A DNA stretch of 64,000 nucleotides, taken from IMG/VR virus record IMGVR_UViG_3300021963_004241, positions 32,001-96,000 of that record, one strand, 5' to 3'. Under the pieces are notes generated by a model, which was not told where the DNA came from, did no database searches, and saw only the letters and a program-made list of their open reading frames with translations. Shown piece by piece: positions 31,674-49,049 of this stretch. Each line of letters begins with the position of its first letter. Position 1 is the stretch's first letter. The position numbers and the translations under genes are program-made. Source of the stretch: a virus.

Positions 31674-32349
31674 TGCTGATTAAACTCTCGCTCATAGGAA
31701 ATATAGCAGCGATAGCTTTGGCGCAGGCAAGAGCAACTAATTGATGCTCTTTTTGTGTACCGTTTCCAGAACGCAGTTCAATAAAATGAACCCAACTACG
31801 TAAGGTACCATTCATGTATAGACGACTCACAGTTAATCCCTCTGGCAGCACCGCACGGGCTTGTTCTTTAGCTATGCCCTTAGATATAGCCCATTCGTAT
31901 GTTTCCTTGGCGACTCTGATGAGTTCGAGTTGTCTATCTCTCCATTCATCTTGTATGATTGCATGGCCAAGTGTGCCGTCCAGAGGGACACTGTTCTGTC
32001 TATTTTTTGGATCTTGTAATCTTGCTTCTCTAATAGTAAACGAGAGGTCTCGAGTAGGGTCAGCATATCGTTGGCTGAACTCTTGGAATGAGAAACTTCT
32101 GTGTCGCAAGATTTGTCTTGCGATGTCTCTTGTGGTTTCGATTTCAACGCAGGCTGAGACCATTTCAAGTGGACTCCAGTGTGCGTGTTTGACCAGGTAT
32201 CTGATGAGTTTTTCACTTGTCTCTGTATTGAGCTGGTTTGAGGGATTGCTGACACGGGCGCAATACGCAATGAGTTCCTGCGCATCGTCGATGCCCAAGT
32301 TTGCAAATTCCTCTGTTGGTTGTGAATAGGAGACCAATCGTACATTCAT
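31666..32349 (-). CDS. thyX: FAD-dependent thymidylate synthase
   Basis: HWSPLE, RQILRHRSFSFQEFSQRY ThyX signature. Confidence 0.96.
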   Translation of the reverse strand: MNVRLVSYSQPTEEFANLGIDDAQELIAYCARVSNPSNQLNTETSEKLIRYLVKHAHWSPLEMVSACVEIETTRDIARQILRHRSFSFQEFSQRYADPTRDLSFTIREARLQDPKNRQNSVPLDGTLGHAIIQDEWRDRQLELIRVAKETYEWAISKGIAKEQARAVLPEGLTVSRLYMNGTLRSWVHFIELRSGNGTQKEHQLVALACAKAIAAIFPMSESLISND

Positions 32350-36050: not shown

Positions 36051-36242
36051 TTACCAATTCTCCACACTAGAAACTACAACTTCAAACCTCCCAGTTTGAT
36101 CATTGACTTTTGTCTCTATGGTCATAGTCGTATGACTGCCAATACCAGAACTATTATCCTGAGTAATTTCTGCTACCTCTACATCTGGAAACTTTTCAAA
36201 AATTTCCATCATTCTTTTGATATCATCTCTATGTAAGTACAT
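36051..36242 (-). CDS. hypothetical protein (63 aa)
   Basis: ORF track. Confidence 0.65.
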   Translation of the reverse strand: MYLHRDDIKRMMEIFEKFPDVEVAEITQDNSSGIGSHTTMTIETKVNDQTGRFEVVVSSVENW

Positions 36243-36805
36243 TAAATATCTCCTTCACGTTCTCTACGAGCTCTACGCTCTGCGGCCAGTGTAAAAACTT
36301 TTTCGTTGTCGTTGGTCCACTCTACTGTTTTAGGAAGAATGATCCCGAACTCGGTTGTATGACCGTTGATAGTATGGGGCTCATTCTCGTCATAGGTCCA
36401 ACCTAGGCACTTCATCATTCGATGCTTGACTAACAGGTTAGGTGATCGAAAAGCCTCGGAATCACGAAAGCCTAACATAACACCTACTTCTGCTACGGCA
36501 CCAGAACGACATACACCTGCGTGGCAATGAACTACTACGTTCATATGTTCCTCGAGTGCGTGTTGCAGTAGTCGAACAAGCTCGTCGGCTTGTTCTTGAC
36601 TGCATCGCATGGTCTCGTCTATTACAAGATCTTTAGCTTCAACGTCGAGAAACTTAAATTGATGTGTTTCGCGAAACTGATGTTTAGGTTCTGGAAATTC
36701 CATGTCTGGATCAACGATCTGTATGAGCATAGAATTAAAACCGGCATCGATGTGAAATCCTTTTTTAATATCGCTCAAAGATACGTTTTGGATCCAGGGA
36801 TTCAT
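36242..36805 (-). CDS. CX5R (tyrosine/dual-specificity-like) phosphatase
   Basis: VHCHAGVCRS. Confidence 0.85.
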   Translation of the reverse strand: MNPWIQNVSLSDIKKGFHIDAGFNSMLIQIVDPDMEFPEPKHQFRETHQFKFLDVEAKDLVIDETMRCSQEQADELVRLLQHALEEHMNVVVHCHAGVCRSGAVAEVGVMLGFRDSEAFRSPNLLVKHRMMKCLGWTYDENEPHTINGHTTEFGIILPKTVEWTNDNEKVFTLAAERRARREREGDI

Positions 36806-37234: not shown

Positions 37235-37308
37235 TGGTGCTCCCAACTGGTAACGATCCAGTGTTTCTACATTACCAATGTAGTGTAATACCTTTATACT
37301 ATGAGAGC
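37235..37308 (-). tRNA. tRNA-Thr(GGT)
   Basis: Cloverleaf, loop TTGGTAA, CCA; T loop ATCGTTA. Confidence 0.88.
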
Positions 37309-37938
37309 CGAAAATTTTTCTACTAGTTCTCTATGTGGTCGGATTCCAGGATGGCAGTTATCCGGAAAATCTTCAGACCATTTCATTTGATCTAAGATAG
37401 TTTTGTGATCTTTTAAAAGACGGTTTTTAAACTCTAAACTGTCTGCGGATTTTTCTATGAGGTCCAAATGACAGAGTGTATGTACAGTTGGAAATTGTTT
37501 GCCAAAAATAGAACTGCGCCAATCAGGAATCACAAAATCTGCAGATGTTATCTCATAGAAACAATCTAATAATTTTGCCTGTCCACCAATGACTAATGTT
37601 TTAGCCGAGGTGAACTTTTTAAGTTTATCAAATTCCTGATAGATTATTCTAGAATTACTTTCTATAACATCATTTATAAGGAATGATTTATCAGCATCGA
37701 AAAGATTCCTATCTCTTAGAGATTCTGTGTGAAACCAAATGATCCAATCTATTTTAGATATTAAATGATTCTTTGCTGAACTAATCGATGCTAGATTAGA
37801 TCCGCCATTGTTAGCACAGTTGTAAACTGTGTACCCTAGATCTTTTAGTAGAAATTCTGTATGGTATTTTGCATCAACTCCGGGCGGTCCGTAGTAATTT
37901 GGGACCCCCCAACTGTCGCCTAATATTAATATGTTCAT
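37294..37938 (-). CDS. SGNH-hydrolase-like protein
   Basis: ILGDSW and DNCHP motifs. Confidence 0.7.
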   Translation of the reverse strand: MNILILGDSWGVPNYYGPPGVDAKYHTEFLLKDLGYTVYNCANNGGSNLASISSAKNHLISKIDWIIWFHTESLRDRNLFDADKSFLINDVIESNSRIIYQEFDKLKKFTSAKTLVIGGQAKLLDCFYEITSADFVIPDWRSSIFGKQFPTVHTLCHLDLIEKSADSLEFKNRLLKDHKTILDQMKWSEDFPDNCHPGIRPHRELVEKFSALIV

Positions 37939-37949
37939 GTGGATATTTA

Positions 37950-38024
37950 TGGCCTCCCCAGTAGGAATCGAACCTACAACTAAACCTTAGGAGTGTTTTG
38001 TTATATCCATTTAACTATAGGGAG
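37950..38024 (-). tRNA. tRNA-Arg(CCT)
   Basis: Cloverleaf, loop CTCCTAA, CCA. Confidence 0.85.
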
Positions 38025-38028
38025 AATT

Positions 38029-38105
38029 TGGCCTGACTGGAGGGACTCGAACCCCCGACCTACAGCTTAGAAGGCTGTTGCTCTATCCAGTTGAGCTACA
38101 GTCAG
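38029..38105 (-). tRNA. tRNA-Arg(TCT)
   Basis: Cloverleaf, loop CTTCTAA, CCA. Confidence 0.95.
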
Positions 38106-38110
38106 ATATT

Positions 38111-38184
38111 TGGAGCGGGGTAAGAGAATCGAACTCTCCGCATCAGCTTGGAAGGCTGAGGTATTACCACTATACGAACCCCGC
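38111..38184 (-). tRNA. tRNA-Gly(TCC)
   Basis: Cloverleaf, loop CTTCCAA, CCA. Confidence 0.95.
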
Positions 38185-38202
38185 ATAGATATTACTGTAG
38201 CA

Positions 38203-38613
38203 TCATCTTGATTTTTCTGCAAGTTCTTTATAACCTGCCCAGCTAGGATGTATTGAATCTTTTTGTAAACGATCTGTTTTAATGATAGTATCTCCTCGGC
38301 TTCTTGCGATTATGTTAACGATATCATTAACGTTGGGTTTACAGAACTTGTCATTACAAGGCGGCAAGATCCAGAACACTTTATCTGCTTCTACTCTGGC
38401 CCGCATAGCAGACAATTCTTTAAAAGTATGAACACCAGAATGGTCATTAGTTCCGAGACTGATGATAACTGTGCTTGCTGCTATATTTTTTTCAGCAAAC
38501 TTTTTATTCCAGCCCCAACTGTTGATCCCGCCAACACTGTAACTAACGCATTCTTTCCTTACGTTAGCTGTTCCTACTGCAATACTGTCGCCTACGATTA
38601 AACATTCTAACAT
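38203..38613 (-). CDS. GDSL/SGNH hydrolase-like protein
   Basis: IVGDSIA, LGTND, DSIHP. Confidence 0.8.
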   Translation of the reverse strand: MLECLIVGDSIAVGTANVRKECVSYSVGGINSWGWNKKFAEKNIAASTVIISLGTNDHSGVHTFKELSAMRARVEADKVFWILPPCNDKFCKPNVNDIVNIIARSRGDTIIKTDRLQKDSIHPSWAGYKELAEKSR

Positions 38614-38624
38614 ATATTATCCTT

Positions 38625-38700
<76 letters not shown>

Positions 38701-38749
38701 ATTGAGACACACTACTTATCCTATTATACGCCATGTGTCAGGGCGAAAT

Positions 38750-38826
<77 letters not shown>

Positions 38827-38931
38827 AATAGATTTAGGGCACAACAACTAAAAGTATCTACAATACTAATGTCATCTTTGTTATTTAAAATGAGCACAAT
38901 AACGATGCGTCAAGAGTGCTATTCCCTAAAA

Positions 38932-39007
38932 TGGTTGCAGGGGAGGGAATCGAACCCCCGACCTCAAGGTTATGAGCCTTGCCAGATACCGCTTCTAACA
39001 CCCTGCG
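38932..39007 (-). tRNA. initiator-type tRNA-Met(CAT)
   Basis: C1:A72 mismatch, loop CTCATAA, CCA; only two of the usual three G-C anticodon-stem pairs. Confidence 0.88.
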
Positions 39008-39011
39008 TCAA

Positions 39012-39155
39012 ACTTTTGTTAATGGTACAGTTTACTACCCTCTTGCTACCTATTGTTGATCTGTTACACAGACCATTTACTAGTATCATAGGCTTTCCGC
39101 TTTGGGCAAGGTTAGCTGTGTACATTAGCCCACGAGCTGTACCATTAACAAAAGT
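39012..39155 (-). ncRNA. candidate structured RNA closed by a perfect 19-bp stem
   Basis: acttttgttaatggtacag (39012-39030) / ctgtaccattaacaaaagt (39137-39155) with internal hairpins. Confidence 0.55.
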
Positions 39156-39359
39156 GTCTAGCTACAGTTCCCTGTTCCGCCCTAGACTGAGTTGTCTACC
39201 CTGTCGATCAGTATTTAAATTTTTGTCGCCAGTTCTGCTTCTGCCGCCACGGTGTCTCAAGTCGCCGAAAAGGCCTTGGGGTCGATTACCGTTTGCACCC
39301 TGACGTTTTGGTGAAGTCAATTACCCCCTTTAATAACGAGGAAGGGACCCCGGGGTCTG

Positions 39360-39932
39360 TTAGATTAATCCTTCTAGTTGAAGAGTTGCAACAACTTCAT
39401 CGCTGAGAGGGATCTCAGTTTTGATGTTTAACTCAAGAACTTCATCATTCAAAGATTGTTTCTGTTTCTTGAGATCATTTAATTGAGCACGGAAACGATC
39501 AATGTCTCCTACTCGCAACACACTGGTTTCAACAGTGTCACCGTAGCCATAGATACGACTACGTGCTTCGTCTTTCAAATTCTTGATCTTCTCAAGTTTG
39601 CCTTTGACAACTTCGATGTCAGTGACAGTGTCACGACCAACGATTTCAGTCAGTTGTGCAACACGCTTGTCGATGAAAGCTGCTTTAGTCAGCTTAAGAT
39701 CGATTCCGCTTTCGGCATTTGCGGCACACACTAGTCCGCGAATGTTGTAAAGGGCAACCAACAGGTTAGTCCTTCGGAGATCATTTTCCAGCATCTTCTG
39801 ATTGGCTTTTTCAATCTCAGCTTCTGGATTTTGAAATTCGTTGAGAGTTACATTGAACTCTACTTTGATATTTTTAACGGCATCGTTGATGCTGTTTTGA
39901 ATTGCATTTGCTTTACGTAATGTTACTTTCAT
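39360..39932 (-). CDS. coiled-coil protein (190 aa), possibly DIP1984/DUF6847-like
   Basis: GAGG RBS; helical; C-terminal LNDEVLELNIKTEI. Family resemblance from memory only. Confidence 0.7.
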   Translation of the reverse strand: MKVTLRKANAIQNSINDAVKNIKVEFNVTLNEFQNPEAEIEKANQKMLENDLRRTNLLVALYNIRGLVCAANAESGIDLKLTKAAFIDKRVAQLTEIVGRDTVTDIEVVKGKLEKIKNLKDEARSRIYGYGDTVETSVLRVGDIDRFRAQLNDLKKQKQSLNDEVLELNIKTEIPLSDEVVATLQLEGLI

Positions 39933-39949
39933 TTGTGCCTCTCTATGTT

Positions 39950-40220
39950 AACGGGTCGGTAAAGGGTCAAGTAATAGACCGGACAATTGACAAGACCTAT
40001 TGTGCGATGTCGTCGGTCTGGACAATATGCAATAGACAGGCTACAGAGACCTGAATATTTCCGATTAGCAATTGACAGGTATATAAGAATCGGTTCACTC
40101 AAGCACGAACAGTTTTCAAGACTGTTTGCCAGGATTAGTTCGTATTCGCTTATGGGCGAAAACGATTGTCTATTCTCTTCTACCCTCTACTTCACCGGCT
40201 TTGGTATTACTACCTCAGCA
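39950..40220 (-). ncRNA. candidate structured 5' leader/ncRNA with repeated GUCWAUU motifs
   Basis: Promoter TTGACA-N16-TATAAT (40226-40253); ~290-nt ORF-free leader; 5'/3' pairing CGGUGAAG/CUUUACCG. Confidence 0.55.
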
Positions 40221-40280
40221 AAACTATTATAGTTGATTTAAAACTAATGTCAACCAGTTGTCTTAAATTTTTCTTTATTT

Positions 40281-40356
40281 TGGCTCCCCGGGGAAGGATC
40301 GAACTTCCGACCAATTGATTAACAGTCAACTGCTACTACCGCTGAGCTACCGGGGA
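40281..40356 (-). tRNA. tRNA-Asn(GTT)
   Basis: Cloverleaf, loop CTGTTAA, CCA. Confidence 0.93.
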
Positions 40357-40363
40357 ATGTGTT

Positions 40364-40437
40364 TGGTGCCCCTACACAGAATCGAACTGCAAACTACGGA
40401 TTACAAAACCGTCGTTATACCATTTAACTATAAGGGC
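40364..40437 (-). tRNA. tRNA-Thr(TGT)
   Basis: Cloverleaf, loop TTTGTAA, CCA. Confidence 0.88.
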
Positions 40438-40443
40438 GAAACT

Positions 40444-40611
40444 TTACTTACTTCTTGATTCTAATGTCCTGATTCTATTTTGAATCTTGCTCTTGTCTTT
40501 TGGACGAGAGCTCTTTTCTAACATCTCACGTAATTGTACTAGATTAAGTGGTCCTAGTCTAGTCTTTCCTGTTTTTGTTTTCATTGGATCTGCATGATTT
40601 GTTTTTGACAT
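40444..40611 (-). CDS. small basic protein (55 aa, not in ORF track)
   Basis: GAGGA RBS; MSKTNHADPMKTKTGKTRLGPLNL...SRSK*. Confidence 0.65.
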   Translation of the reverse strand: MSKTNHADPMKTKTGKTRLGPLNLVQLREMLEKSSRPKDKSKIQNRIRTLESRSK

Positions 40612-40625
40612 ATTATCCTCTTATT

Positions 40626-40701
40626 TGGTGGAGGTAAACGGGATCGAACCGATGACCTTTAGCTTGCAAAGCTACTGCTCTCCCAGCTGAGCTATACCCC
40701 C
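40626..40701 (-). tRNA. tRNA-Ala(TGC)
   Basis: Cloverleaf, G3:U70, loop TTTGCAA, CCA. Confidence 0.95.
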
Positions 40702-41171
40702 ATTGTGTACTTATAAACGTTTTTTTCTACTGGTAACCATTCCGGATTTTCTAAAGGATCAAAATATTTAGAATCGTATTCTCCAGAATATATAACACAA
40801 TCATTTTTTACTAACAAATCTTTATTACCAGAAAACTTGGATAGATTTAAGTATCCTAGTTCTCTGTTTCTTACACACATATTCCAAGCCATTCCTGCTA
40901 AGAATATTCCATCGACGGTATCGTCATCTAGTAAGAATTTAATCTCATCGATAGTAGTGGCGTAAATTTTTTTACCTTTAAGATTACATACTATAGAAGA
41001 TGCTTTCTTGTTATCGTATGCAGCTATGACTATAGTGTCGATGTCATTTCTCGATTCAACGAATCTTTTGATATTTCTCAACACAGCATAATGCGCTGAC
41101 AACGGAAAAAGTAAAATATTAATCCAATCTAATTCCCAGGGATCTATAATTATTAAAATCCTCTTTTTCAT
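40692..41171 (-). CDS. isochorismatase/cysteine-hydrolase-like protein
   Basis: LIIIDPW and LAGMAWNMCV motifs. Confidence 0.55.
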   Translation of the reverse strand: MKKRILIIIDPWELDWINILLFPLSAHYAVLRNIKRFVESRNDIDTIVIAAYDNKKASSIVCNLKGKKIYATTIDEIKFLLDDDTVDGIFLAGMAWNMCVRNRELGYLNLSKFSGNKDLLVKNDCVIYSGEYDSKYFDPLENPEWLPVEKNVYKYTMGV

Positions 41172-41179
41172 TAGACGAG

Positions 41180-41362
41180 TTATTCTTCTGCTTTGTCTTT
41201 ATTTCGAGATCTCGACGATACTGGTTTAATCAACGCAGCCATCTCGGCTTGTATCATTGCACGTTTCCACTGAGCCTTTTTGTGAGGATCTTGAAACTTA
41301 GACAATGCTAAACTTGTCTTTAGAGGTTTTGACATTCTATAATTAGCGCCTGGTTTTAACAT
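41180..41362 (-). CDS. small basic protein (60 aa)
   Basis: AGGA RBS before MLKPG; the ORF-track start lies inside tRNA-Ser. Confidence 0.65.
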   Translation of the reverse strand: MLKPGANYRMSKPLKTSLALSKFQDPHKKAQWKRAMIQAEMAALIKPVSSRSRNKDKAEE

Positions 41363-41382
41363 ATTTTTCCTTTTTAAAAATT

Positions 41383-41477
41383 TGGCGGAGTGTATTGGAT
41401 TCGAACCAATGATGCAGGTTTTTGCCCACATGCCTTCTTAGCAGGAAGGTGCCTTCGACCAACTCGGCCAACACTCC
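41383..41477 (-). tRNA. tRNA-Ser(GCT)
   Basis: Cloverleaf with long variable arm, loop CTGCTAA, CCA. Confidence 0.93.
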
Positions 41478-41483
41478 AATGTT

Positions 41484-43088
41484 TCACTTGAGATACTTTC
41501 TTTCCCAGGTTTTATAATCTACATCCTGGAATATATTTTCTTTTAACCATTCATAATTATTAGGTAAGTCATCGCTGATTAAATCGTGCTTTACTTCTCT
41601 CGAAGTAAAATAATGACGTCCTAAGTTCAACTGATTTTTAGTTATCGAATCTTTCTTAAATTTAGATAAATCTAATTTCCAAGAAGCCGCTAACTGCAAC
41701 CACATATATTCTGCAAATAATGTCCAATGGTCTTTAGCATTGGTTATGGAATTTCTTCCATCGCTATACTTTTGAAAAATCAAATCTTCGTGACGTTCTT
41801 TGTCGCCGATCGATCGCATGTCGTTCCAAAAGTCAGTGTCAGTTCTCTTACTAAGAGTGTAATGTATCTTTATAAAATCTGTTAGATCGTCAATGGTGTA
41901 TGCCAGTTTCTTATTGTAATTGGACCAATCTAAGTTTCCAGTTTTTTTATATCCGTCTAAACTGTTGATCAATTCGTATATTCCACTGATCAAAATGTAT
42001 AACGCATTTGCTTCTAATGGTTCGTAGAAACCAGAACACAGTCCTACAGTGGCTACGTTACCATTGGCAAATTGTTCTAATCTAGCAGGTTTCCAGGATA
42101 GCACTCTGGGTTCTAATCTTCTATTAGAATTTAGTTTTTTGTACTCGTCTATAGCCTGTTCAACATCTAAGTGACTAGAACTAAAACAAAGTCCACATCC
42201 CATCCTATGATATAAACCGATCTTAAACATCCATCCGTTGGGTTGTGCTATCGATTGTGTGTAATTTACTAACTCTTTTTGTATGTCGTTATATTCTAAT
42301 TGTGCAACTACAGCAGTATCGATGGCATAATCTTTGTAGGGAATCACATTCCAGTTTAGTGCTTTGACTAACAGTCTCGCGAAACCAGAAGCATCAACAA
42401 ACAAATCAGCTGTAACAACTTCTCCATCTTCTAAAACAACGGATGATATTTTATCCTGTTCACATTTTACTTCTATGACTTTTTTAGAAATATGTTTCAC
42501 ACCGTTCGGTAATGCAATAAAATCTCTTACATAGTCTCCGCATTTATCTGCGTTGATGTGTTGACTCCAGCTGTAAAACTGATTAAGTAGATACTTGTCA
42601 TTTAAAAACGGAGAAACGTTTTTCTCCATGTAATGATATGCACTACTCCAATACCTATCAAACTTGTCTATGGAACCATCTAACAACAGTTGAGAAAATA
42701 CATCTGTTGTTTTAACAGTACTCTCTGGATATTTTAAATCGTTGTAGCTGACTAATTCTGAAGTTTCTCTGTACAGCAACTCTGCTGCGGAAGGATACGA
42801 AAATCCAAAATATTCGGATTCATTTTGATCCCCAGTGATCCATCCAGTGAACTTGTTAGCTAATTTATAAACAGCACCAGTTTCATTCATCCAGTGCTTT
42901 GTGTCAATTTCTAGAAAATCAAAAAATCCTTGTACGTGCGGTGTAACACTTTCTCCTACTCCAATCTTTGGAATATCCGGAGACTCTATCAAAGTGATAT
43001 TAAATTGATCATAGACTTTTGAAAGAGCTCCTGCTGTAAACCAGCCAGAAGTGCCGCCACCGACTATAACTATATTTTTTATTTTCAT
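41484..43088 (-). CDS. flavin-dependent tryptophan halogenase family protein
   Basis: IVGGGTSGW, IGVGES, KLANKF, FVDASGF, GWMFKIGL, GFYEPLEA, DTDFW. Confidence 0.88.
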   Translation of the reverse strand: MKIKNIVIVGGGTSGWFTAGALSKVYDQFNITLIESPDIPKIGVGESVTPHVQGFFDFLEIDTKHWMNETGAVYKLANKFTGWITGDQNESEYFGFSYPSAAELLYRETSELVSYNDLKYPESTVKTTDVFSQLLLDGSIDKFDRYWSSAYHYMEKNVSPFLNDKYLLNQFYSWSQHINADKCGDYVRDFIALPNGVKHISKKVIEVKCEQDKISSVVLEDGEVVTADLFVDASGFARLLVKALNWNVIPYKDYAIDTAVVAQLEYNDIQKELVNYTQSIAQPNGWMFKIGLYHRMGCGLCFSSSHLDVEQAIDEYKKLNSNRRLEPRVLSWKPARLEQFANGNVATVGLCSGFYEPLEANALYILISGIYELINSLDGYKKTGNLDWSNYNKKLAYTIDDLTDFIKIHYTLSKRTDTDFWNDMRSIGDKERHEDLIFQKYSDGRNSITNAKDHWTLFAEYMWLQLAASWKLDLSKFKKDSITKNQLNLGRHYFTSREVKHDLISDDLPNNYEWLKENIFQDVDYKTWERKYLK

Positions 43089-43128
43089 ATTTGTATATAT
43101 TATAGAAAAATAGTTTTCTATAATAAAT

Positions 43129-43227
43129 TGGTGCCTCCGGCAGGACTCGAACCTGCACACTCAGGCTTATCTGGCCTGTGCTTTGGCGAGGTATAAGCTC
43201 GCTTCTTTACCATTAAGCTACGGAGGC
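43129..43227 (-). tRNA. tRNA-Ile(TAT) with unusually long variable arm
   Basis: GCGAG-CTTATAC-CTCGC anticodon arm; 29-nt variable region with CAGGC/GCCTG stem; CCA. Confidence 0.85.
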
Positions 43228-43232
43228 ATTTT

Positions 43233-43307
43233 TGGTGCATCGTGAGAGGGTTGAACTCCCGACCTTGGCCTTGTAAGGGCCCTGCTCTACCACTGAGCTA
43301 ACGATGC
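43233..43307 (-). tRNA. tRNA-Val(TAC)
   Basis: Cloverleaf, loop CTTACAA, CCA. Confidence 0.93.
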
Positions 43308-43529
43308 TTATTTCTTTTTCCCTATCTCTTTAGAAACTTTAGTTAGATACTGTTTCATTTCTTTATATGTAGGAAAATGAAGTTTGTCCCCTTGTATCTC
43401 AAGTACCCACATTATTTCGTCTGCGTCATGAGGGCTTTCAACTTGTTCTACTACGAAGTCGACATTAGGCAGTTTCTTTTCAAAGTCCGCCATGTCTTTG
43501 GTAAATTTTGCGAAATTAATCTCTTCCAT
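43308..43529 (-). CDS. hypothetical protein (73 aa)
   Basis: AAGGA RBS before MEEINF. Confidence 0.65.
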   Translation of the reverse strand: MEEINFAKFTKDMADFEKKLPNVDFVVEQVESPHDADEIMWVLEIQGDKLHFPTYKEMKQYLTKVSKEIGKKK

Positions 43530-43538
43530 GATTATCCT

Positions 43539-43622
43539 TGGTGCCCCAGGAGAGACTCGAACTCTCACGCCTTGCGACATTGGCTTCTAAGACCAACGTG
43601 TCTACCATTCCACCACCGGGGC
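43539..43622 (-). tRNA. tRNA-Leu(TAG)
   Basis: Class II cloverleaf, loop CTTAGAA, CCA. Confidence 0.93.
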
Positions 43623-43641
43623 ATAAATCTATTATAGCAAA

Positions 43642-43827
43642 TTACTTAGCTGTGTCAAGTCTCTTTTCTAATTTTTTTAGAGTATCCTTGCGCATTAAGA
43701 ATCGTCTTTCCTGACTAGGCCTATGAACGACGAGATATTCAACACCATCTATTACCTGCACATCTCGCGTGTTCTCACAAACAAATTTTTCGTGATTAAG
43801 AATGTTTTCAAAAGTTACAGGCTTCAT
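43642..43827 (-). CDS. hypothetical protein (61 aa)
   Basis: AAGGAG RBS. Confidence 0.7.
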   Translation of the reverse strand: MKPVTFENILNHEKFVCENTRDVQVIDGVEYLVVHRPSQERRFLMRKDTLKKLEKRLDTAK

Positions 43828-43838
43828 AATTATCTCCT

Positions 43839-43912
43839 TGGGGTGCCTTGGGGAATCGAACCCTCGCCTGCTGATTCACAGTCAGCTTTGCTACCACTAC
43901 ACTAAAGACACC
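43839..43912 (-). tRNA. tRNA-His(GTG)
   Basis: G-1:C73, loop CTGTGAA, CCA. Confidence 0.93.
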
Positions 43913-43918
43913 ATTGTG

Positions 43919-43992
43919 TGGCGGCGGTACCAGGGCTCGAACCTAGAACGACTGAGTCAAAGTCAGTTGTGTTACCATTACACCATACCGCT
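43919..43992 (-). tRNA. tRNA-Gln(TTG)
   Basis: Cloverleaf, loop CTTTGAC, CCA. Confidence 0.92.
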
Positions 43993-43997
43993 ATATT

Positions 43998-44073
43998 TGG
44001 TGCTGCCTCGTGGGATCGAACCACGTTCCTCGGTTCTTCAGACCGGTGCTATGACCACATCAGCTAAAGCAGC
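43998..44073 (-). tRNA. tRNA-Phe(GAA)
   Basis: Cloverleaf, loop CTGAAGA, CCA. Confidence 0.9.
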
Positions 44074-44078
44074 AAAAT

Positions 44079-44154
44079 TGGTGGAGGCACAGGGACTCGA
44101 ACCCTGAACCTACCGGTTAAAAGCCGGTTGCTCTAGCCATTGAGCTATACCTCC
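44079..44154 (-). tRNA. tRNA-Lys(TTT)
   Basis: Cloverleaf, loop CTTTTAA, CCA. Confidence 0.94.
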
Positions 44155-44246
44155 GTATAGTCCGTATTAGATTGATTTACTGTGCCAACCCGGACCACAC
44201 GGAGTACCGGGCGACACTAAGGTTTACCTACCTTCATGCCATTCTC

Positions 44247-44315
44247 CTATTTTAAATTTTTGTCTATCCAAATTAATCCTACTACAACCAAAATAATAAC
44301 TGCGATCGCCCCATT
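44247..44315 (-). CDS. 22-aa single-transmembrane peptide (not in ORF track)
   Basis: AAGGAG RBS; MGAIAVIILVVVGLIWIDKNLK*. Confidence 0.55.
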   Translation of the reverse strand, partial: NGAIAVIILVVVGLIWIDKNLK

Positions 44316-44331
44316 TTGTTTTCTCCTTTAA

Positions 44332-44413
44332 TGGTACCCCTGCCCGGACTCGAACCGGGAGAAACTAACACTCCTTTTGAGAGAGCTGCCTTTACCAATT
44401 TGGCCACAGGGGC
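44332..44413 (-). tRNA. tRNA-Leu(CAA)
   Basis: Cloverleaf, loop CTCAAAA, CCA. Confidence 0.88.
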
Positions 44414-44416
44414 ATT

Positions 44417-44501
44417 TGGTGCGAGCGGAGGGTCACGATCCCTCAATCCCGAAGGCGGCAGATTTTAAGTCTGCTGTGTATACCAATTCCACCACGCTCG
44501 C
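44417..44501 (-). tRNA. tRNA-Leu(TAA)
   Basis: Class II cloverleaf, loop CTTAAAA; T loop ATCGTGA. Confidence 0.9.
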
Positions 44502-44508
44502 ATATTTC

Positions 44509-44584
44509 TGGCACCCCTGGAAGGAATCGAACCTCCTACTCCGATGTTCGTAGCATCGTACTCTGTCCAATGAGTTACAGGGGT
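44509..44584 (-). tRNA. tRNA-Arg(ACG)
   Basis: Cloverleaf, loop CTACGAA, CCA. Confidence 0.92.
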
Positions 44585-44586
44585 AT

Positions 44587-44661
44587 TGGCCGGCCTGGAG
44601 AGATTCGAACTCCCGACAGCTGGTTTCGAAGACCAGAACTCTTCCACTGAGCTACAGGCCG
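44587..44661 (-). tRNA. tRNA-Arg(TCG)
   Basis: Cloverleaf, loop CTTCGAA, CCA. Confidence 0.9.
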
Positions 44662-44664
44662 AAT

Positions 44665-44743
44665 TGGTCTGGATGGTAGGATTCGAACCTACAACCTCGA
44701 TCTTCCAAAGATCGCCGTCTACGCAGATTGACATTACACCCAG
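44665..44743 (-). tRNA. tRNA-Pro(TGG), second divergent copy
   Basis: CGATC-TTTGGAA-GATCG arm, CCA. Confidence 0.85.
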
Positions 44744-44752
44744 GTTAAAGGA

Positions 44753-44976
44753 TTGTAGCCTAGCGTCCTCAGGTTCATCGCTAGTGTTTACGCATACAGA
44801 GCCGGACTTCCTTATGCGGAGGTTTTCCAGGACATGTTACTTGGGCTACTAAGCCAGGCGCTTCCACTTCAGCTACCGCCCGGAATGGACGGTGGGGAGT
44901 CGAACCCCCTCCTGCTCTACATTGTATTAAGTTTCGAACCTTTTTACAATGTGCTTTTTACTTGCTAACGCTACAA
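44753..44976 (-). ncRNA. RNA with circularly permuted tRNA-like domain (YrlA/Y-RNA-like)
   Basis: T arm, then closed acceptor hairpin, then D arm at 44851-44918; ends complementary (TTGTAGC/GCTACAA). Confidence 0.6.
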
Positions 44977-44979
44977 ACT

Positions 44980-45054
44980 TGGTGCCGCAGGGTGGGAACG
45001 ATCCACCGACCTACGCCTTATCAAGACGTTGCTCTACCACTGAGCTACTGAGGC
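44980..45054 (-). tRNA. tRNA-Ile(GAT)
   Basis: Cloverleaf, loop TTGATAA; T loop ATCGTTC. Confidence 0.9.
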
Positions 45055-45064
45055 AAATTTTATT

Positions 45065-45139
45065 TGGTGGTAACGATAGGACTCGAACCTATACCTTGCA
45101 GCGTATGAAGCTGTTGCACGACCATTATGCTACGTTACC
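45065..45139 (-). tRNA. tRNA-CAT (elongator Met or lysidine Ile2)
   Basis: Cloverleaf, loop TTCATAC, paired G1-C72, CCA. Confidence 0.88.
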
Positions 45140-45141
45140 GT

Positions 45142-45216
45142 TGGCGGTCCCAAGGGGTAACGATCCCCTTCTTTCAGCGTGACAGGCTGATGTGCGTCCA
45201 TGAACACTTTGAGACC
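45142..45216 (-). tRNA. tRNA-Asp(GTC)
   Basis: Cloverleaf, loop CTGTCAC; T loop ATCGTTA. Confidence 0.9.
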
Positions 45217-45222
45217 TAATGT

Positions 45223-45312
45223 TGGCGGAAGCGGTGAGATTCGAACTCACGGACCATTTCTGATCGTCTGTTTTCAAGACAGGTGCAATAAACCGGACTC
45301 TGCCACACTTCC
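45223..45312 (-). tRNA. tRNA-Ser(TGA)
   Basis: Class II cloverleaf, loop CTTGAAA, CCA. Confidence 0.93.
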
Positions 45313-45774
45313 TTCGATTTTAAATTTTGTTAGAATGTCTACACTCCAACGATAAGCATAACTAGTGCCATGCTCATTACTAAAGAATAATTTTTTACTG
45401 TGAGGTAGATCCATGTCTAGGATATAGACATGGTCTGGATCAAACTTAGGATCATTGAATCCTATGTAAACTTTTGTATCGTGTTTCTTAGCTATGTTTT
45501 TATAACTGTTATAGAATCGTTCATCAAAGCCAAAGTATCTTTGACCATACATTTCGTAACAGTTTCTTTTCTTAGCATCTATAAAACAGATCTTTTCTGT
45601 CTCAGTATTGTAAAGAACATAGTCGGGAAATTGATCTCCGTCCTCGTCTCTATGTACGTCTCGGGTATCATTGACTTCCCAGTTTGTATTAGCGAAGTAT
45701 TGGTCCATCCATTTCTCCATCTTGGATTCCCATACTTGGCCTACAGCTAATGATTTTCTAAATTTAATTCCCAT
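45274..45774 (-). CDS. PD-(D/E)xK nuclease-like protein
   Basis: WE...FPDYVLY...FIDAKKR; own promoter TTGACA-N17-TACACT. Confidence 0.65.
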   Translation of the reverse strand: MGIKFRKSLAVGQVWESKMEKWMDQYFANTNWEVNDTRDVHRDEDGDQFPDYVLYNTETEKICFIDAKKRNCYEMYGQRYFGFDERFYNSYKNIAKKHDTKVYIGFNDPKFDPDHVYILDMDLPHSKKLFFSNEHGTSYAYRWSVDILTKFKIEGSVAESGLLHLS

Positions 45775-45808
45775 ACTACAGTGTATAGTATAAAAATTAG
45801 TTTGTCAA

Positions 45809-45886
45809 TGGAGCACCGGGTAGGATTTGAACCTACGGTTTTATGGATTTGCAATCCACTGCATTGGGCCTCTCTGCCACCGGTGC
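45809..45886 (-). tRNA. tRNA-Cys(GCA)
   Basis: Cloverleaf, loop TTGCAAA, U73, CCA. Confidence 0.92.
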
Positions 45887-45891
45887 ATAAC

Positions 45892-45967
45892 TGGTACACG
45901 GTACGGGAATCGAACCCGTCTTTCCGCCTTGAAAGGGCAGCGTCCTCGACCGATAGACGAACCGTGC
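45892..45967 (-). tRNA. tRNA-Glu(TTC)
   Basis: Cloverleaf, loop CTTTCAA, CCA. Confidence 0.93.
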
Positions 45968-46064
45968 ATAAAAACTGCTAAGGGACACACAGGGCTGTTG
46001 TTTAAGAGTGAGCGGCGACTTTACGTAAAAGTCTCCTCCCGCAACTCTCCCATTAAGACTTTAC

Positions 46065-46139
46065 TGGCGTACCCCCAGGGATTCGAACCCCGACTAGCAG
46101 TTTTGGAGACTGTCGTGCTGCCGTTGACACTAGGGATAC
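46065..46139 (-). tRNA. tRNA-Trp(CCA)
   Basis: Cloverleaf, loop CTCCAAA, CCA. Confidence 0.92.
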
Positions 46140-46145
46140 ATTCTT

Positions 46146-46230
46146 TGGTGGATGCGGCTGGAGTCGAACCAGCAGTGCCAGAGGCGGCGGATTTACAGTC
46201 CACTGGGGTTACCAATTTTCCTACACATCC
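46146..46230 (-). tRNA. tRNA-Tyr(GTA)
   Basis: Class II cloverleaf, loop CTGTAAA, CCA. Confidence 0.93.
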
Positions 46231-46319: not shown

Positions 46320-47205
46320 TTAAAGCTGAGATTACACTTTAACCAGTAACACCTCGAGCATTATACTGCACCTTGCGAGCACAGCTTCTCTCGACATCCA
46401 CATAAGCCCTTGCGGTACCTATGTCTGCTACCAGCATCGCCGTTTTTAAAGACAGGCAGTAGTCTTGTCGTCATACGCTATTCTGTATCATCTATCCCGT
46501 TGACCTTGCGAGCCATTCAAGTGCGCTAACACTTTACGAAACTTCCAATACAAACTAGTATCACCTTGCGAGCTTTACTAGGCTTGATTCACTTGCGTGT
46601 CAAGCATTAGATGCTTTTCACGTATGACCGAGGCAGTCTTTGCATTTTTGTGTTGATAGTTGGAATCGAACCAACTGCCGTCTGTTTAACATACAGATGC
46701 TCTACCGAATGAGCTATATCGAACCTACCGTGATGAGCTACCTCTGTTGCTCAATAATCTTTTGGACTACTGAATACAACTCACCACATACCTTTTGTCT
46801 TGCGGACTACTCAGTGATGTTTCACGATCGGTGTCCTGCATCAAAACAGTCCACTAACCATTAACATTGCACACGAGCTCTTGACTGCAACATCTCGAAC
46901 CAATGCACTACCCTTTCTCATACCTGTTCGCAAGTTGGTTTTGTTAGGAAGTCAGCACCACCTGTTACTTTTCATACGCCCAGGTTCCTTACGGCCTGTC
47001 GACGCACATTCTTTCCCTAACACTTGCTTCACAGTTACATCCACCGGTCTTATCAGTGAACGCTACCTCGCGGTAGTGAGCAGGCTTGTTTACGTGAACC
47101 ATTGCTGGCGCTAGTATGTAGGCATTCTAGCTTTGGCTGTGTCACCACAGTTATTCTTCGTAACGCTGGGCGAACCATACGCTACAGGACAATAAACTGC
47201 CCTAA
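46320..47205 (-). ncRNA. large structured ncRNA, GOLLD-like
   Basis: ~890 nt with no credible minus-strand ORF, at least 8 C-GNRA-G tetraloop hairpins, promoter TTGACA-N16-TATAAT at 47212-47239, adjacent to tRNA array, internal tRNA. Confidence 0.72.
46651..46724 (-). tRNA. tRNA-Asn(GTT)-like element embedded in the large ncRNA (no CCA)
   Basis: D arm GCTC/GAGC, TCTGT-ATGTTAA-ACAGA, T arm GTTGG-TTCGATT-CCAAC, bulged acceptor. Confidence 0.7.
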
Positions 47206-47487
47206 GTCTCTATTATATACAAGTTATTTTACTTGTCAATACTTTTTGGTTAAACACTCTTCCCTATGGTTTTAGACAGCGTCAGGGGCTGAATGAAGAG
47301 TGTGTATTAAAGTGCTCTATGTACGCTATGCGCCGCCTTGTTCAGAGGTCGATAGAACACTTTAATACGCTACCATTTTACGCATCTAGGTTGTCGCCCT
47401 AGACTTACCATCCGGTAGGCCGCCCACATTAGTAGCAAGATTTTTATAGTGCCCTGCAGGGTCGCGTTCCCTATCACACTTCGCGTT

Positions 47488-47646
47488 CTACGAAAGGTCT
47501 TCCTTACGTTCCCGCACTTTGTCTAACGAGTAAAAAAATGTGTTTCTTTTCACTTTAGATTCAATTAATTTCTTAAATTGTTCTTCAGTTAAAACAAATC
47601 CTTCACTGTGCTCAACTTTGTAATCGTCATCTATCTCAAATTCCAT
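47488..47646 (-). CDS. small hypothetical protein (52 aa, not in ORF track), first gene after attenuator
   Basis: AAGGA RBS; MEFEIDDDYKVEHSEGFVLTEEQFKKL...DLS*. Confidence 0.6.
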   Translation of the reverse strand: MEFEIDDDYKVEHSEGFVLTEEQFKKLIESKVKRNTFFYSLDKVRERKEDLS

Positions 47647-47660
47647 CTGTTCCTTTCGGC

Positions 47661-47696
47661 AAACAAAAACCCCAGGGTTTTTAATCCTGGGGTCCT
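47661..47696 (-). terminator. intrinsic terminator of putative attenuator
   Basis: ACCCCAGG-attaaaaac-CCTGGGGT-TTTTGTTT. Confidence 0.85.
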
Positions 47697-47746
47697 TTTG
47701 AAGTTTGTGTAGTTTTGTTTACGCTACACGATCCTCCGAGGACCCC
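47689..47746 (-). promoter_or_regulatory. antiterminator hairpin
   Basis: GGGGTCCT (47739-47746, in leader ORF) complementary to AGGACCCC (47689-47696, terminator 5' arm); inner GGAG/CTTC and GTGTAG/CTACAC helices. Confidence 0.75.
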
Positions 47747-47862
47747 GATTCTGGTGTACGATCATTAGATAGACTAATCTCACATACAGACCAATATGAG
47801 GGCATAAAGCCTCCCAACTGGGCTATCTGTTTCGCTTGTCTATGTAACGATAATTGTTTCAT
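47719..47862 (-). CDS. attenuator leader peptide containing all 20 amino acids (47 aa, not in ORF track)
   Basis: AAGGA RBS; MKQLSLHRQAKQIAQLGGFMPSYWSVCEISLSNDRTPESGSSEDRVA*. Confidence 0.75.
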   Translation of the reverse strand: MKQLSLHRQAKQIAQLGGFMPSYWSVCEISLSNDRTPESGSSEDRVA

Positions 47863-47901
47863 TTGCTTTTCTTTCCTTGTGCTGTTTCCAGCGATGTTCT
47901 T

Positions 47902-47992
47902 ACTATAACAACTGTTAAGAAGCTTGTCAACCTATTTTGGCATTCTTCCTAACCATTGCAAAAATTATAATGTAACTTTATTTAGTTGTCAA
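47902..47992 (-). promoter_or_regulatory. tandem sigma70-type promoters
   Basis: TTGACA-N17-TATAGT (47902-47930) and TTGACA-N17-TATAAT (47964-47992). Confidence 0.8.
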
Positions 47993-48074: not shown

Positions 48075-49049
48075 ATGATGAATTACGAAAAAATTTCTTG
48101 GCAGTCTATAAAATCGTTTGGTCAACAAACAATGTTAGATCGTCCACTGTTCAACATAAGTTGGATACTGGGCAGGTTCTGCAATTACAAATGTAGCTAC
48201 TGTTGGCCCTACGCCAGAAGCGATCAACAAGACTACCAATCACTTGATGTGTATAAGAATACAATTGATCAAATTAAAAGTCAAGCCCGTTCGAACGGAT
48301 TCACAGAGTTCCATTGGAGCTTCAGCGGCGGCGAGCCAACTGCTTATAAACATCTAAATGACTTAGTCAAGTATTTGGACGAGAAGGAAAGTTCCTATCA
48401 AAGTGTGCATATGACTACTAATCTTAGTCCGGGAAGCAAATGGTGGAACACCTGGTGTAGTAATACTTGTTTATTACAAAGAAGAAGCATCACAGCCAGC
48501 TTTCACGAGGAGTTTGCCAAAGAGCAAGAGTTTGGAGACAAGTGTTTGCAACTAATGTATGAGCGTGTGCATGTAACTATCAATCAAGTAATGGTGCCTG
48601 ATCGATTCTATGAGCTGTATGAACGCTGCGATCGATTCCACAGGAAAGGTATCAACGTCACATTGAAACCCCAAAGTGATCCTACTGCTAGCCGTGTAGT
48701 AGAAGGGTACACTGACGAAATGATAAAGATTATGCAAACAGGATTTCCCCAAAGATCTGAAGATGAAAATGTATATCAAATCCGTTTAAACAACGGAACA
48801 ACAGATTATTACTTTGATCAAGCAGAAAGATTTAATGCTTTTGGATTTAATAAATTTAAAAATTGGACCTGCAACAGCGGGTATCAAAGTCTAGTGATCA
48901 GAGGAAATGAAGTAAAACGTGCTTACAGTTGCAAAGAAGAACCCTTAGGAACTTTGGAGGATTTCCAAATTTTTAAAGAACCTAAGGTCTGTGTAACAGA
49001 AACTTGTGTAAGTTCAGCAGACAGTAAAATACCAAAAAGAATACAATGA
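48075..49049 (+). CDS. radical SAM protein
   Basis: CNYKCSYC, FSGGEP, C-terminal Cys cluster. Confidence 0.9.
   Translation: MMNYEKISWQSIKSFGQQTMLDRPLFNISWILGRFCNYKCSYCWPYARSDQQDYQSLDVYKNTIDQIKSQARSNGFTEFHWSFSGGEPTAYKHLNDLVKYLDEKESSYQSVHMTTNLSPGSKWWNTWCSNTCLLQRRSITASFHEEFAKEQEFGDKCLQLMYERVHVTINQVMVPDRFYELYERCDRFHRKGINVTLKPQSDPTASRVVEGYTDEMIKIMQTGFPQRSEDENVYQIRLNNGTTDYYFDQAERFNAFGFNKFKNWTCNSGYQSLVIRGNEVKRAYSCKEEPLGTLEDFQIFKEPKVCVTETCVSSADSKIPKRIQ

Follow-up and report, generated by a model that had tools for sequence, protein, structure and literature searches.

The 64,000-nt window analysed here, positions 32,001 to 96,000 of the IMG/VR virus record IMGVR_UViG_3300021963_004241, lies within a genome represented by a single contig of 111,181 bp with a G+C content of 38%. 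On the minus strand of the window, a 47-codon open reading frame (ORF), referred to below as the leader, is preceded by two sigma-70-type promoters and a Shine-Dalgarno (SD) site and followed by an intrinsic terminator, a 52-residue ORF, a non-coding element, a GOLLD RNA and a long array of tRNA genes (Table 1). An earlier note, made from the DNA letters alone, had read this arrangement as an attenuator that senses every tRNA. The two promoters, the ribosome-binding site and the terminator with its U-run lie where it had placed them, and recounting confirmed that all 20 amino acids occur in codons 1–36 and that codons 1–38 comprise 32 distinct codons. The set is completed by Thr36, whose codon starts 11 nt ahead of the hairpin described below; the minimal complete stretch spans residues 7–36.

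Table 1. Features of the leader, the switch and the downstream region in the window.
Feature	Position	Strand	Basis and remarks
Distal sigma-70-type promoter of leader, TTGACA-17-TATAAT	47964–47992	minus	Promoter scan; 12/12 consensus matches
Proximal promoter, TTGACA-17-TATAGT with upstream TG	47902–47930	minus	11/12 consensus matches; ~33 nt upstream of ATG
SD site AAGGA	47874–47878	minus	Read from sequence; 11 nt ahead of leader ATG
Leader ORF, 47 codons and TAA, one internal Met	47719–47862	minus	Frame open in 157 distinct homologues
P1 5' arm of antiterminator, GGGGTCCT, codons 39–42	47739–47746	minus	Fold; pairs with 47689–47696
P2, GGAG/CTTC	47733–47736 with 47700–47703	minus	Fold
P3, GTGTAG/CTACAC	47724–47729 with 47707–47712	minus	Fold; stop codon 47719–47721 at top
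P1 3' arm, AGGACCCC	47689–47696	minus	Fold; last five bases are the start of the terminator 5' arm
Intrinsic terminator, ACCCCAGG / 9-nt loop / CCTGGGGT then TTTTGTTT	47661–47693	minus	Sequence and fold
Terminator 5' arm	47686–47693	minus	
Terminator A-rich 9-nt loop	47677–47685	minus	
Terminator 3' arm	47669–47676	minus	
Terminator U-tract	47661–47668	minus	
52-aa ORF with own ribosome-binding site	47488–47646	minus	First gene after terminator
Non-coding 248-nt element between 52-aa ORF and next promoter	47240–47487	minus	Minimum free energy -76.9 kcal/mol
Internal consensus promoter ahead of GOLLD, TTGACA-16-TATAAT	47212–47239	minus	12/12 matches; bypasses the switch
GOLLD RNA with embedded tRNA-Asn-like element	46323–47205	minus	Rfam RF02032
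tRNA array, protein genes and promoters interspersed	37235–46230	minus	ARAGORN, Rfam and promoter scan

The 3' part of the leader ORF and the sequence that follows it fold as the earlier note had described, into a hairpin of three helices, P1–P3, with the stop codon at its top and its 3' arm overlapping the terminator (-24.6 kcal/mol, z = -3.75). The five bases that the P1 3' arm has in common with the terminator 5' arm allow only one of the two helices to form, and their energies are nearly equal. In the ensemble of the 238-nt leader transcript, pair probabilities are 0.37–0.49 for P1 and 0.53–0.64 for the terminator, and a transcript prefix lacking the terminator 3' arm folds completely into the P1–P3 hairpin. 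The terminator stem has 8 bp, six of them G-C, and is followed by a U-tract; the consensus terminator scan missed it because the scan allows loops of up to 8 nt and this loop has 9. The element occurs once in the 111-kb genome.

BLAST searches of the region and of the leader peptide against 50,697 cultured-phage records gave no match. A search with the 52-aa ORF led to three syntenic contigs, in each of which a tRNA array is accompanied by a homologous leader and an identical terminator. The terminator DNA pattern was then found at no fewer than 118 loci in viral contigs, and an independent pattern from the coding region, ATGATCGYACACCAGAG, at 120 or more, of which at least 73 were new. These family counts (loci, leaders and switches) are drawn from the matches listed by the two pattern scans and are lower bounds; at least 157 distinct homologous leaders of 42–55 residues were obtained from viral contigs. 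The leader peptide alone, searched with HMMER against 1.84 billion representative proteins, retrieved 19 clusters of 43–73 residues. The terminator pattern had no match in 185,579 prokaryote species genomes, and hence there is no clue from prophages or hosts. Rfam covariance models applied to 47200–47900 at permissive thresholds gave no hit better than E = 0.12; the hits were to unrelated models far under their gathering scores, with no T-box or other family among them. Full-text literature searches found no description of the leader or the switch element, in agreement with the earlier note's remark that it knew of no described example.

The signals for expression of the leader recur in the family. 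All 83 family loci counted have a promoter with at least 10 of 12 consensus matches within 180 nt upstream of the leader ORF, and many members have an AAGGA-like site. The promoters, the SD site, the ATG and the fact that insertions and deletions among the 157 variants preserve or restore the frame suggest that the short 5' ORF is translated. In one sub-family (L090, L097, L111, L143 and relatives), a -10 box (TACAAT/TATAAT) ends about 10 nt upstream of the leader ATG and the 20 nt upstream of that ATG contain no SD site; on these features, leaders of this sub-family would be leaderless or nearly so.

Amino-acid completeness in this one genome could be due to chance and is not significant. The null frequency, which the earlier note had proposed to compute, is 0.27% of 36-residue windows in the long ORFs of the genome, and 2 of its 640 ORFs of at least 36 residues are complete within their first 36 codons, about as many as expected. 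The only other such ORF, of 79 residues at a minus-strand offset of about 75525, fits this chance rate of roughly 0.3%. It is at the level of the family that the tests are significant.

Among the homologues, 80 of 90 distinct leaders in the terminator-pattern set and 48 of 54 in the coding-motif set contain all 20 amino acids, as do 14 of the 19 HMMER cluster representatives, the other five each lacking one residue type. For the pooled distinct set the figure is 137/157, so that the completeness predicted for homologues by the earlier note is conserved far beyond shuffled controls. In an alignment of 105 sequences, 90 leaders are complete, compared with a mean of 21.5 after shuffling within columns (sd 3.9, maximum 36 in 2000 shuffles) and with 3.4 in random draws at the family composition. 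One leader per cluster was sampled to lessen the effect of relatedness. At less than 65% identity, 50 of 66 leaders are complete (shuffle mean 11.7, maximum 23), and at less than 50% identity 28 of 39 (mean 6.7, maximum 14); no shuffle of either set reached the observed value.

This signal arises because residues shift between columns and yet are not lost. Cys occurs in 28 alignment columns, none of them above 18%; 81 of 105 leaders have a single Cys and 3 have none, against 30 expected. His is absent from none of the 105 (24.5 expected), Tyr from two (21 expected) and Phe from two (16 expected). Of the 157 leaders, 129 have exactly one Cys, 134 one His, 143 one Trp and 120 one Tyr. Sampling of elongator tRNA-Met requires an internal Met, and 156 of the 157 leaders have one. 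These patterns indicate that completeness for the 20 amino acids is under selection.

The leaders have no runs of a single amino acid, and their codons are varied. They contain on average 35.4 distinct codons, compared with 32.0 when synonymous codons are redrawn, and both codon boxes are represented for Ser in 88, for Leu in 74 and for Arg in 68 of 90 leaders, each count lying above all 500 redraws. As a signal of selection this variety is suggestive, since conserved positions with fixed codons contribute to it. The rare residues lie almost always upstream of P1, and the 11 nt between the completing codon and P1 seen in the window is the commonest distance in the family.

The hairpin is conserved along with the terminator. 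Folded individually, the P1–P3 hairpins of 88 family members have a mean free energy of -23.7 kcal/mol and a mean z of -3.8 against interior shuffles, with 99% below -1. When the terminator is included, 51 members have a minimum-energy fold with the antiterminator and 37 one with the terminator. The terminator stem is present in all members, with compensatory variants. The nucleotide that belongs to both helices is C in 89 of 131 distinct switches, with G opposite it in P1 and in the terminator in 83, and U in 42, with A opposite in P1 in 36 of them and A or G opposite in the terminator. Another P1 pair changes from C-G to U-A in this set. In a plain MAFFT alignment of 88 sequences the variable hairpin was misaligned, and RNAalifold gave the invariant terminator alone; the evidence for the hairpin comes from folds of each sequence, from counts anchored on the stop codon and from a hairpin-only alignment. 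From the latter, made of 51 diverse hairpins, RNAalifold recovered P1 and some of P2, five pairs having compensatory changes, and P2 pairs show double changes across the family. Anchored on the stop codon in 128 sequences, the stop-codon U is paired in 86% and the six positions ahead of it in 62–86%, with several pair types each. Throughout the family the stop codon thus sits at the top of the P3 5' strand, where a terminating ribosome would block the antiterminator.

Several observations on individual parts of the switch may be added. The A-rich terminator loop is conserved (47669–47685 on the minus strand; ATTAAAAAC, ACTAAACAC and similar). In predicted folds with P1 closed, this loop pairs with the U-tract (AAAAACCC/GGGUUUUU), a pairing that in these models would remove the U-tract in the read-through state. 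Locus L265 carries a natural deletion spanning P1 from its 5' arm to its 3' arm, which leaves CCAGGGACCCTGGGGTTTTT with the leader frame continuing beyond it; judged from its sequence, it may be a natural switch mutant.

The earlier note had further predicted that the antiterminator/terminator complementarity would be kept while the peptide drifts, and this is what the family displays. Codon differences between leaders are near neutral, with 835 synonymous and 2583 nonsynonymous changes, and in leader pairs that are 75–97% identical 32%, 27% and 41% of the differences fall on codon positions 1, 2 and 3. The P1 arm GGGTCC falls in each of the three reading frames, in 64, 22 and 4 members, indicating that the constraint on this segment acts on the RNA. 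The leader frame as a whole is open in every variant.

Leaders of this family stand ahead of tRNA genes. Among loci with at least 1500 nt of downstream sequence, a same-strand tRNA lies within 1500 nt in 138 of 138, namely 85/85 loci (at 185–1171 nt) and 53/53 loci (at 257–966 nt). The downstream arrays contain up to 41 tRNAs, none on the other strand. In the window, 30 tRNAs on the same strand, including tRNA-Asn(GTT) within GOLLD at 46650–46723 (ARAGORN), cover all 20 amino acids. GOLLD itself was identified by Rfam RF02032 with 225.6 bits and E = 2.6e-63 over 46323–46787. The internal promoters at 47212, 45780, 43631 and 40226 that the earlier note had pointed out are all present; besides the one ahead of GOLLD, minus-strand promoters lie at 45808–45780, 43658–43631, 40253–40226 and 37234–37206. 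In the family, a promoter with at least 10 of 12 consensus matches separates the terminator from the first tRNA in 26 of 83 loci, and the other 57 have none there.

Of the elements between terminator and array, homologues of the 52-aa ORF (49–65 residues, core ~HTLT.EQ..KLI..K.ERA) directly follow the terminator in 49 of 83 family loci; the ORF has no Pfam or PHROG match. The 248-nt element is 74–93% identical in 62 family loci and folds strongly, with no match to an Rfam family. In loci L081–L083 a tRNA-Tyr directly follows this element; in the window a promoter and GOLLD lie between, as if inserted. A small stem-loop is seen at 47458–47472 on the minus strand and, immediately behind the terminator, in 28 of 83 family loci; its 7-nt loop, AACGNGA, is conserved, and its stem covaries (AGGG/CCCT, AGGT/ACCT, TGGA/TCCA, TGGC/GCCA). 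It could serve for processing, bind a protein or act as a nut-like site. Within the array, two hits of the Rfam tRNA model, at 43132–43227 and 44669–44742 on the minus strand (59 and 36.5 bits), were not called by ARAGORN; the second overlaps a weak YrlA-like hit at 44610–44718 (31.4 bits, under the gathering score). The array also contains a gene for a 558-aa flavoenzyme of the tryptophan-halogenase family (PF04820, E = 7.7e-89; 41484–43160, minus), and a dual-specificity phosphatase-like gene lies at 36242–36805.

The observed anatomy, conservation, selection for completeness, covariation of both helices and link to tRNA arrays are what the tRNA-sensing reading had predicted for a comparison of homologues. 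We therefore consider it probable that the element is a ribosome-mediated transcription attenuator ahead of the tRNA region, whose leader is kept complete so that slow decoding of any amino acid registers. From its sequence features we infer leader translation, the direction of the switch and the physiological trigger as follows. Transcription would start at either strong promoter, and the 47-codon leader would be translated as it is made. Its last nine sense codons and stop codon would supply the 5' side of the P1–P3 antiterminator hairpin. A ribosome keeping pace with the polymerase would open this 5' side and come to sit on the stop codon, leaving GGACCCC free for the terminator 3' arm, and transcription would terminate at 47661. 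A ribosome held within about the first 36 codons would allow P1 to close before the terminator 3' arm is made, so that no terminator forms; an untranslated leader would be expected to have the same outcome, read-through. The polymerase would then proceed into the 52-aa ORF, the 248-nt RNA element, GOLLD and the tRNA genes. The hold-up could be caused by a missing, uncharged or cleaved tRNA, and the result would be homeostatic control over the supply of phage tRNAs or a response induced by the loss of tRNA. A role in counter-defence may be one of several readings of this outcome, and homeostatic control would fit equally well.

A more specific claim is that phage tRNA arrays are gated by a natural sensor of every tRNA, in which loss, cleavage or non-charging of any single tRNA species turns on the phage tRNAs; we hold the chances for and against this to be about equal. 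Much the same balance applies to its corollary that the leader has been selected to hold at least one codon per amino acid, including one for elongator Met and both boxes of Ser, Leu and Arg. The tRNA loss in question could come about through host anticodon nucleases or through phage-induced host shut-off.

A number of observations weigh against an attenuator of this kind. The earlier note had stated that the leader codons mirror the array, and the match proved no better than expectation: of all codons in the genes of the genome 86% are readable by phage tRNAs, as are 41 of the 47 leader codons compared with 39.5 expected, while exact Watson-Crick matches of leader codon and anticodon number 22 compared with 26 expected. 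The three anticodons that it had listed as having no readable leader codon, CCT, GGT and TCG, are indeed without one; the tRNA-Ile(UAU) that it had listed is not called by ARAGORN, which gives two CAT anticodons instead. When only codons at least 8 nt upstream of P1 are counted, 56 of 90 leaders are complete. In some members Val, Gly or Glu occurs only beside or inside the hairpin, and a stall there should favour termination. Classical attenuators have runs of codons, next to which a single codon for each amino acid makes for low sensitivity. A pause or anti-antiterminator helix involving the P1 5' arm was not clearly seen; a long-range pairing within the ORF, between codons ~4–12 and the stretch before P1, has a mean z of -2.3 against shuffles and leaves the P1 arm uninvolved. 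The peptide carries a conserved motif, ~AKQxGFMPxYW ... NDRTPE, which pure codon sampling does not predict and which may partly reflect this pairing. Finally, the promoter at 47239–47212 and those within the array can transcribe GOLLD and the tRNAs of this phage independently of the switch. As read from the layout of promoters, the switch in this phage would gate for certain only the 52-aa ORF and the 248-nt element, and would add to transcription farther down. Leaders and arrays were also compared for what each lacks: amino acids missing from the leader and tRNAs missing from the array gave four informative cases, two each way, with arrays cut by the ends of loci.

The same attenuator might report on translation in general, as affected for instance by ribosome availability, host shut-off or defences that block translation, and not on the supply of each tRNA, its broad composition merely making the leader an average mRNA. 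Such a sensor would be expected to read through by default when translation fails, as the element should, and it would have little need of the codon matching to the array that the leader indeed lacks; the single codon per amino acid also suits it. Known upstream ORF (uORF) sensors of broad composition answer many translation stresses (whiB7, PMC10274678; toiL, PMC12121999). An average 47-codon mRNA at the flat composition of the family would, however, be complete in only ~3% of cases. The single Cys, His, Tyr and Phe residues that move and are almost never lost point to selection on each amino acid, and the near-universal internal Met and the excess of leaders with both Ser, Leu and Arg boxes point the same way. 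We regard a sensor of general translation as unlikely.

A reversed switch is a good deal less probable. It would have translation to the stop codon favour read-through, with the ribosome released and the hairpin refolding before the terminator is made, and stalling or absence of translation lead to termination. The near-equal energies of the two folds mean that kinetics decide, and the P1 5' arm lies 19–25 nt upstream of the stop codon, just clear of a ribosome bound there. Against this, the prefix fold places completion of the hairpin before the terminator 3' arm exists, so that read-through is expected when the ribosome is absent or stalled, and the geometry matches that of attenuators of the trp and whiB7 types, in the latter of which loss of the start codon makes expression constitutive.

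Marginally weaker still, and very improbable, is an ordinary small phage protein with its own terminator, in which the hairpin stabilises the 3' end of the mRNA and the all-20 composition is a side effect. The conserved peptide motif and the dedicated promoters and ribosome-binding site speak for such a protein. They are countered by the near-neutral codon differences, by a C-terminal third that is read in three frames while the RNA is kept, by completeness far beyond the conserved columns, by a terminator overlap that covaries three ways, and by tRNA arrays that are always adjacent; nor does the leader have a Pfam or PHROG family.

Next to no weight falls on a precursor of a ribosomally synthesised and post-translationally modified peptide serving the divergent radical S-adenosylmethionine (SAM)/oxygenase island that starts at 48075: on the opposite strand, the first gene of interest 213 nt upstream is one for radical SAM (Pfam PF04055), a pairing repeated in L081–L083, but of the 143 family loci with 1800 nt or more of upstream sequence just 3 have that gene near the leader, and in the converse search none of 80 loci found through it (examined out of 316 relatives in viral contigs) carries the leader, similar upstream DNA or any tRNA, so this candidate was rejected for lack of conserved co-location with modifying enzymes.

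Why phages carry tRNA arrays and what use they make of them is an old question, and phage tRNAs have lately been linked to evasion of host defences that cleave tRNAs. We know of no regulator of phage tRNA arrays. The attenuator proposed here offers the hypothesis that slowed decoding of any amino acid induces the array. The selection involved is unusual, preserving the residue set of a peptide and not its order, a property that could be used to find other such sensors. If the proposal is true, viral tRNA genes would have in this element their first known regulator, which would also be the first attenuator under selection to cover the genetic code completely, and its 150-nt cassette would make a compact natural reporter of all 20 aminoacyl-tRNA supplies.

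Among known systems, T-box riboswitches also report on tRNA through a terminator/antiterminator switch. They are untranslated and bind one specific uncharged tRNA; the phage element has no T-box match in Rfam. In the classical attenuators trpL, hisL, pheL, leuL and thrL, a translated leader is followed by an intrinsic terminator and an overlapping antiterminator, and which of the two helices forms depends on where the ribosome stands with respect to the stop codon. Their leaders carry runs of cognate codons, and a 1:2 pause helix leads to termination when the leader is untranslated. The phage element is like them in its short leader, terminator and overlapping antiterminator, and differs in having no runs and no helix found to compete for the P1 5' arm, and in controlling tRNAs instead of biosynthetic enzymes. 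Control of toiL is by Rho-dependent termination that responds to antibiotics, and toiL is not known to be linked to tRNA genes; to our knowledge, completeness for amino acids has not been reported for it. In these respects it differs from the phage leader. What the two would share is the sensing of stalled ribosomes: toiL is a regulatory uORF of the topAI-yjhQ transcript in E. coli and responds to stalling of several different origins (PMC12121999).

The closest functional parallel is the whiB7/wblC attenuator, in which a translated uORF likewise precedes alternative antiterminator and terminator helices and stalling leads to read-through. There, the make-up of the uORF determines the amino-acid starvations to which it responds; sensing needs no more than one Trp codon, and without the start codon expression is constitutive (PMC10274678). 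The M. smegmatis uORF contains 19 of the 20 amino acids, and whiB7 uORFs are highly variable, enriched in Ala and, in M. tuberculosis, without several amino acids (PMC10274678). Completeness is thus not conserved in whiB7, which controls a transcription factor in mycobacteria and other Actinobacteria; the phage element is phage-borne, stands before tRNA genes and retains all 20 residues at a steady length of about 47 codons, without sequence similarity to whiB7. Its downstream genes are the 52-aa ORF, non-coding RNAs and tRNAs, and Ala makes up 5.9% of residues in the family, so that the resemblance is functional only. Ribosome-mediated attenuation is already known; what is new in the element described here is selection for full amino-acid coverage, the control of tRNA genes and the phage setting.

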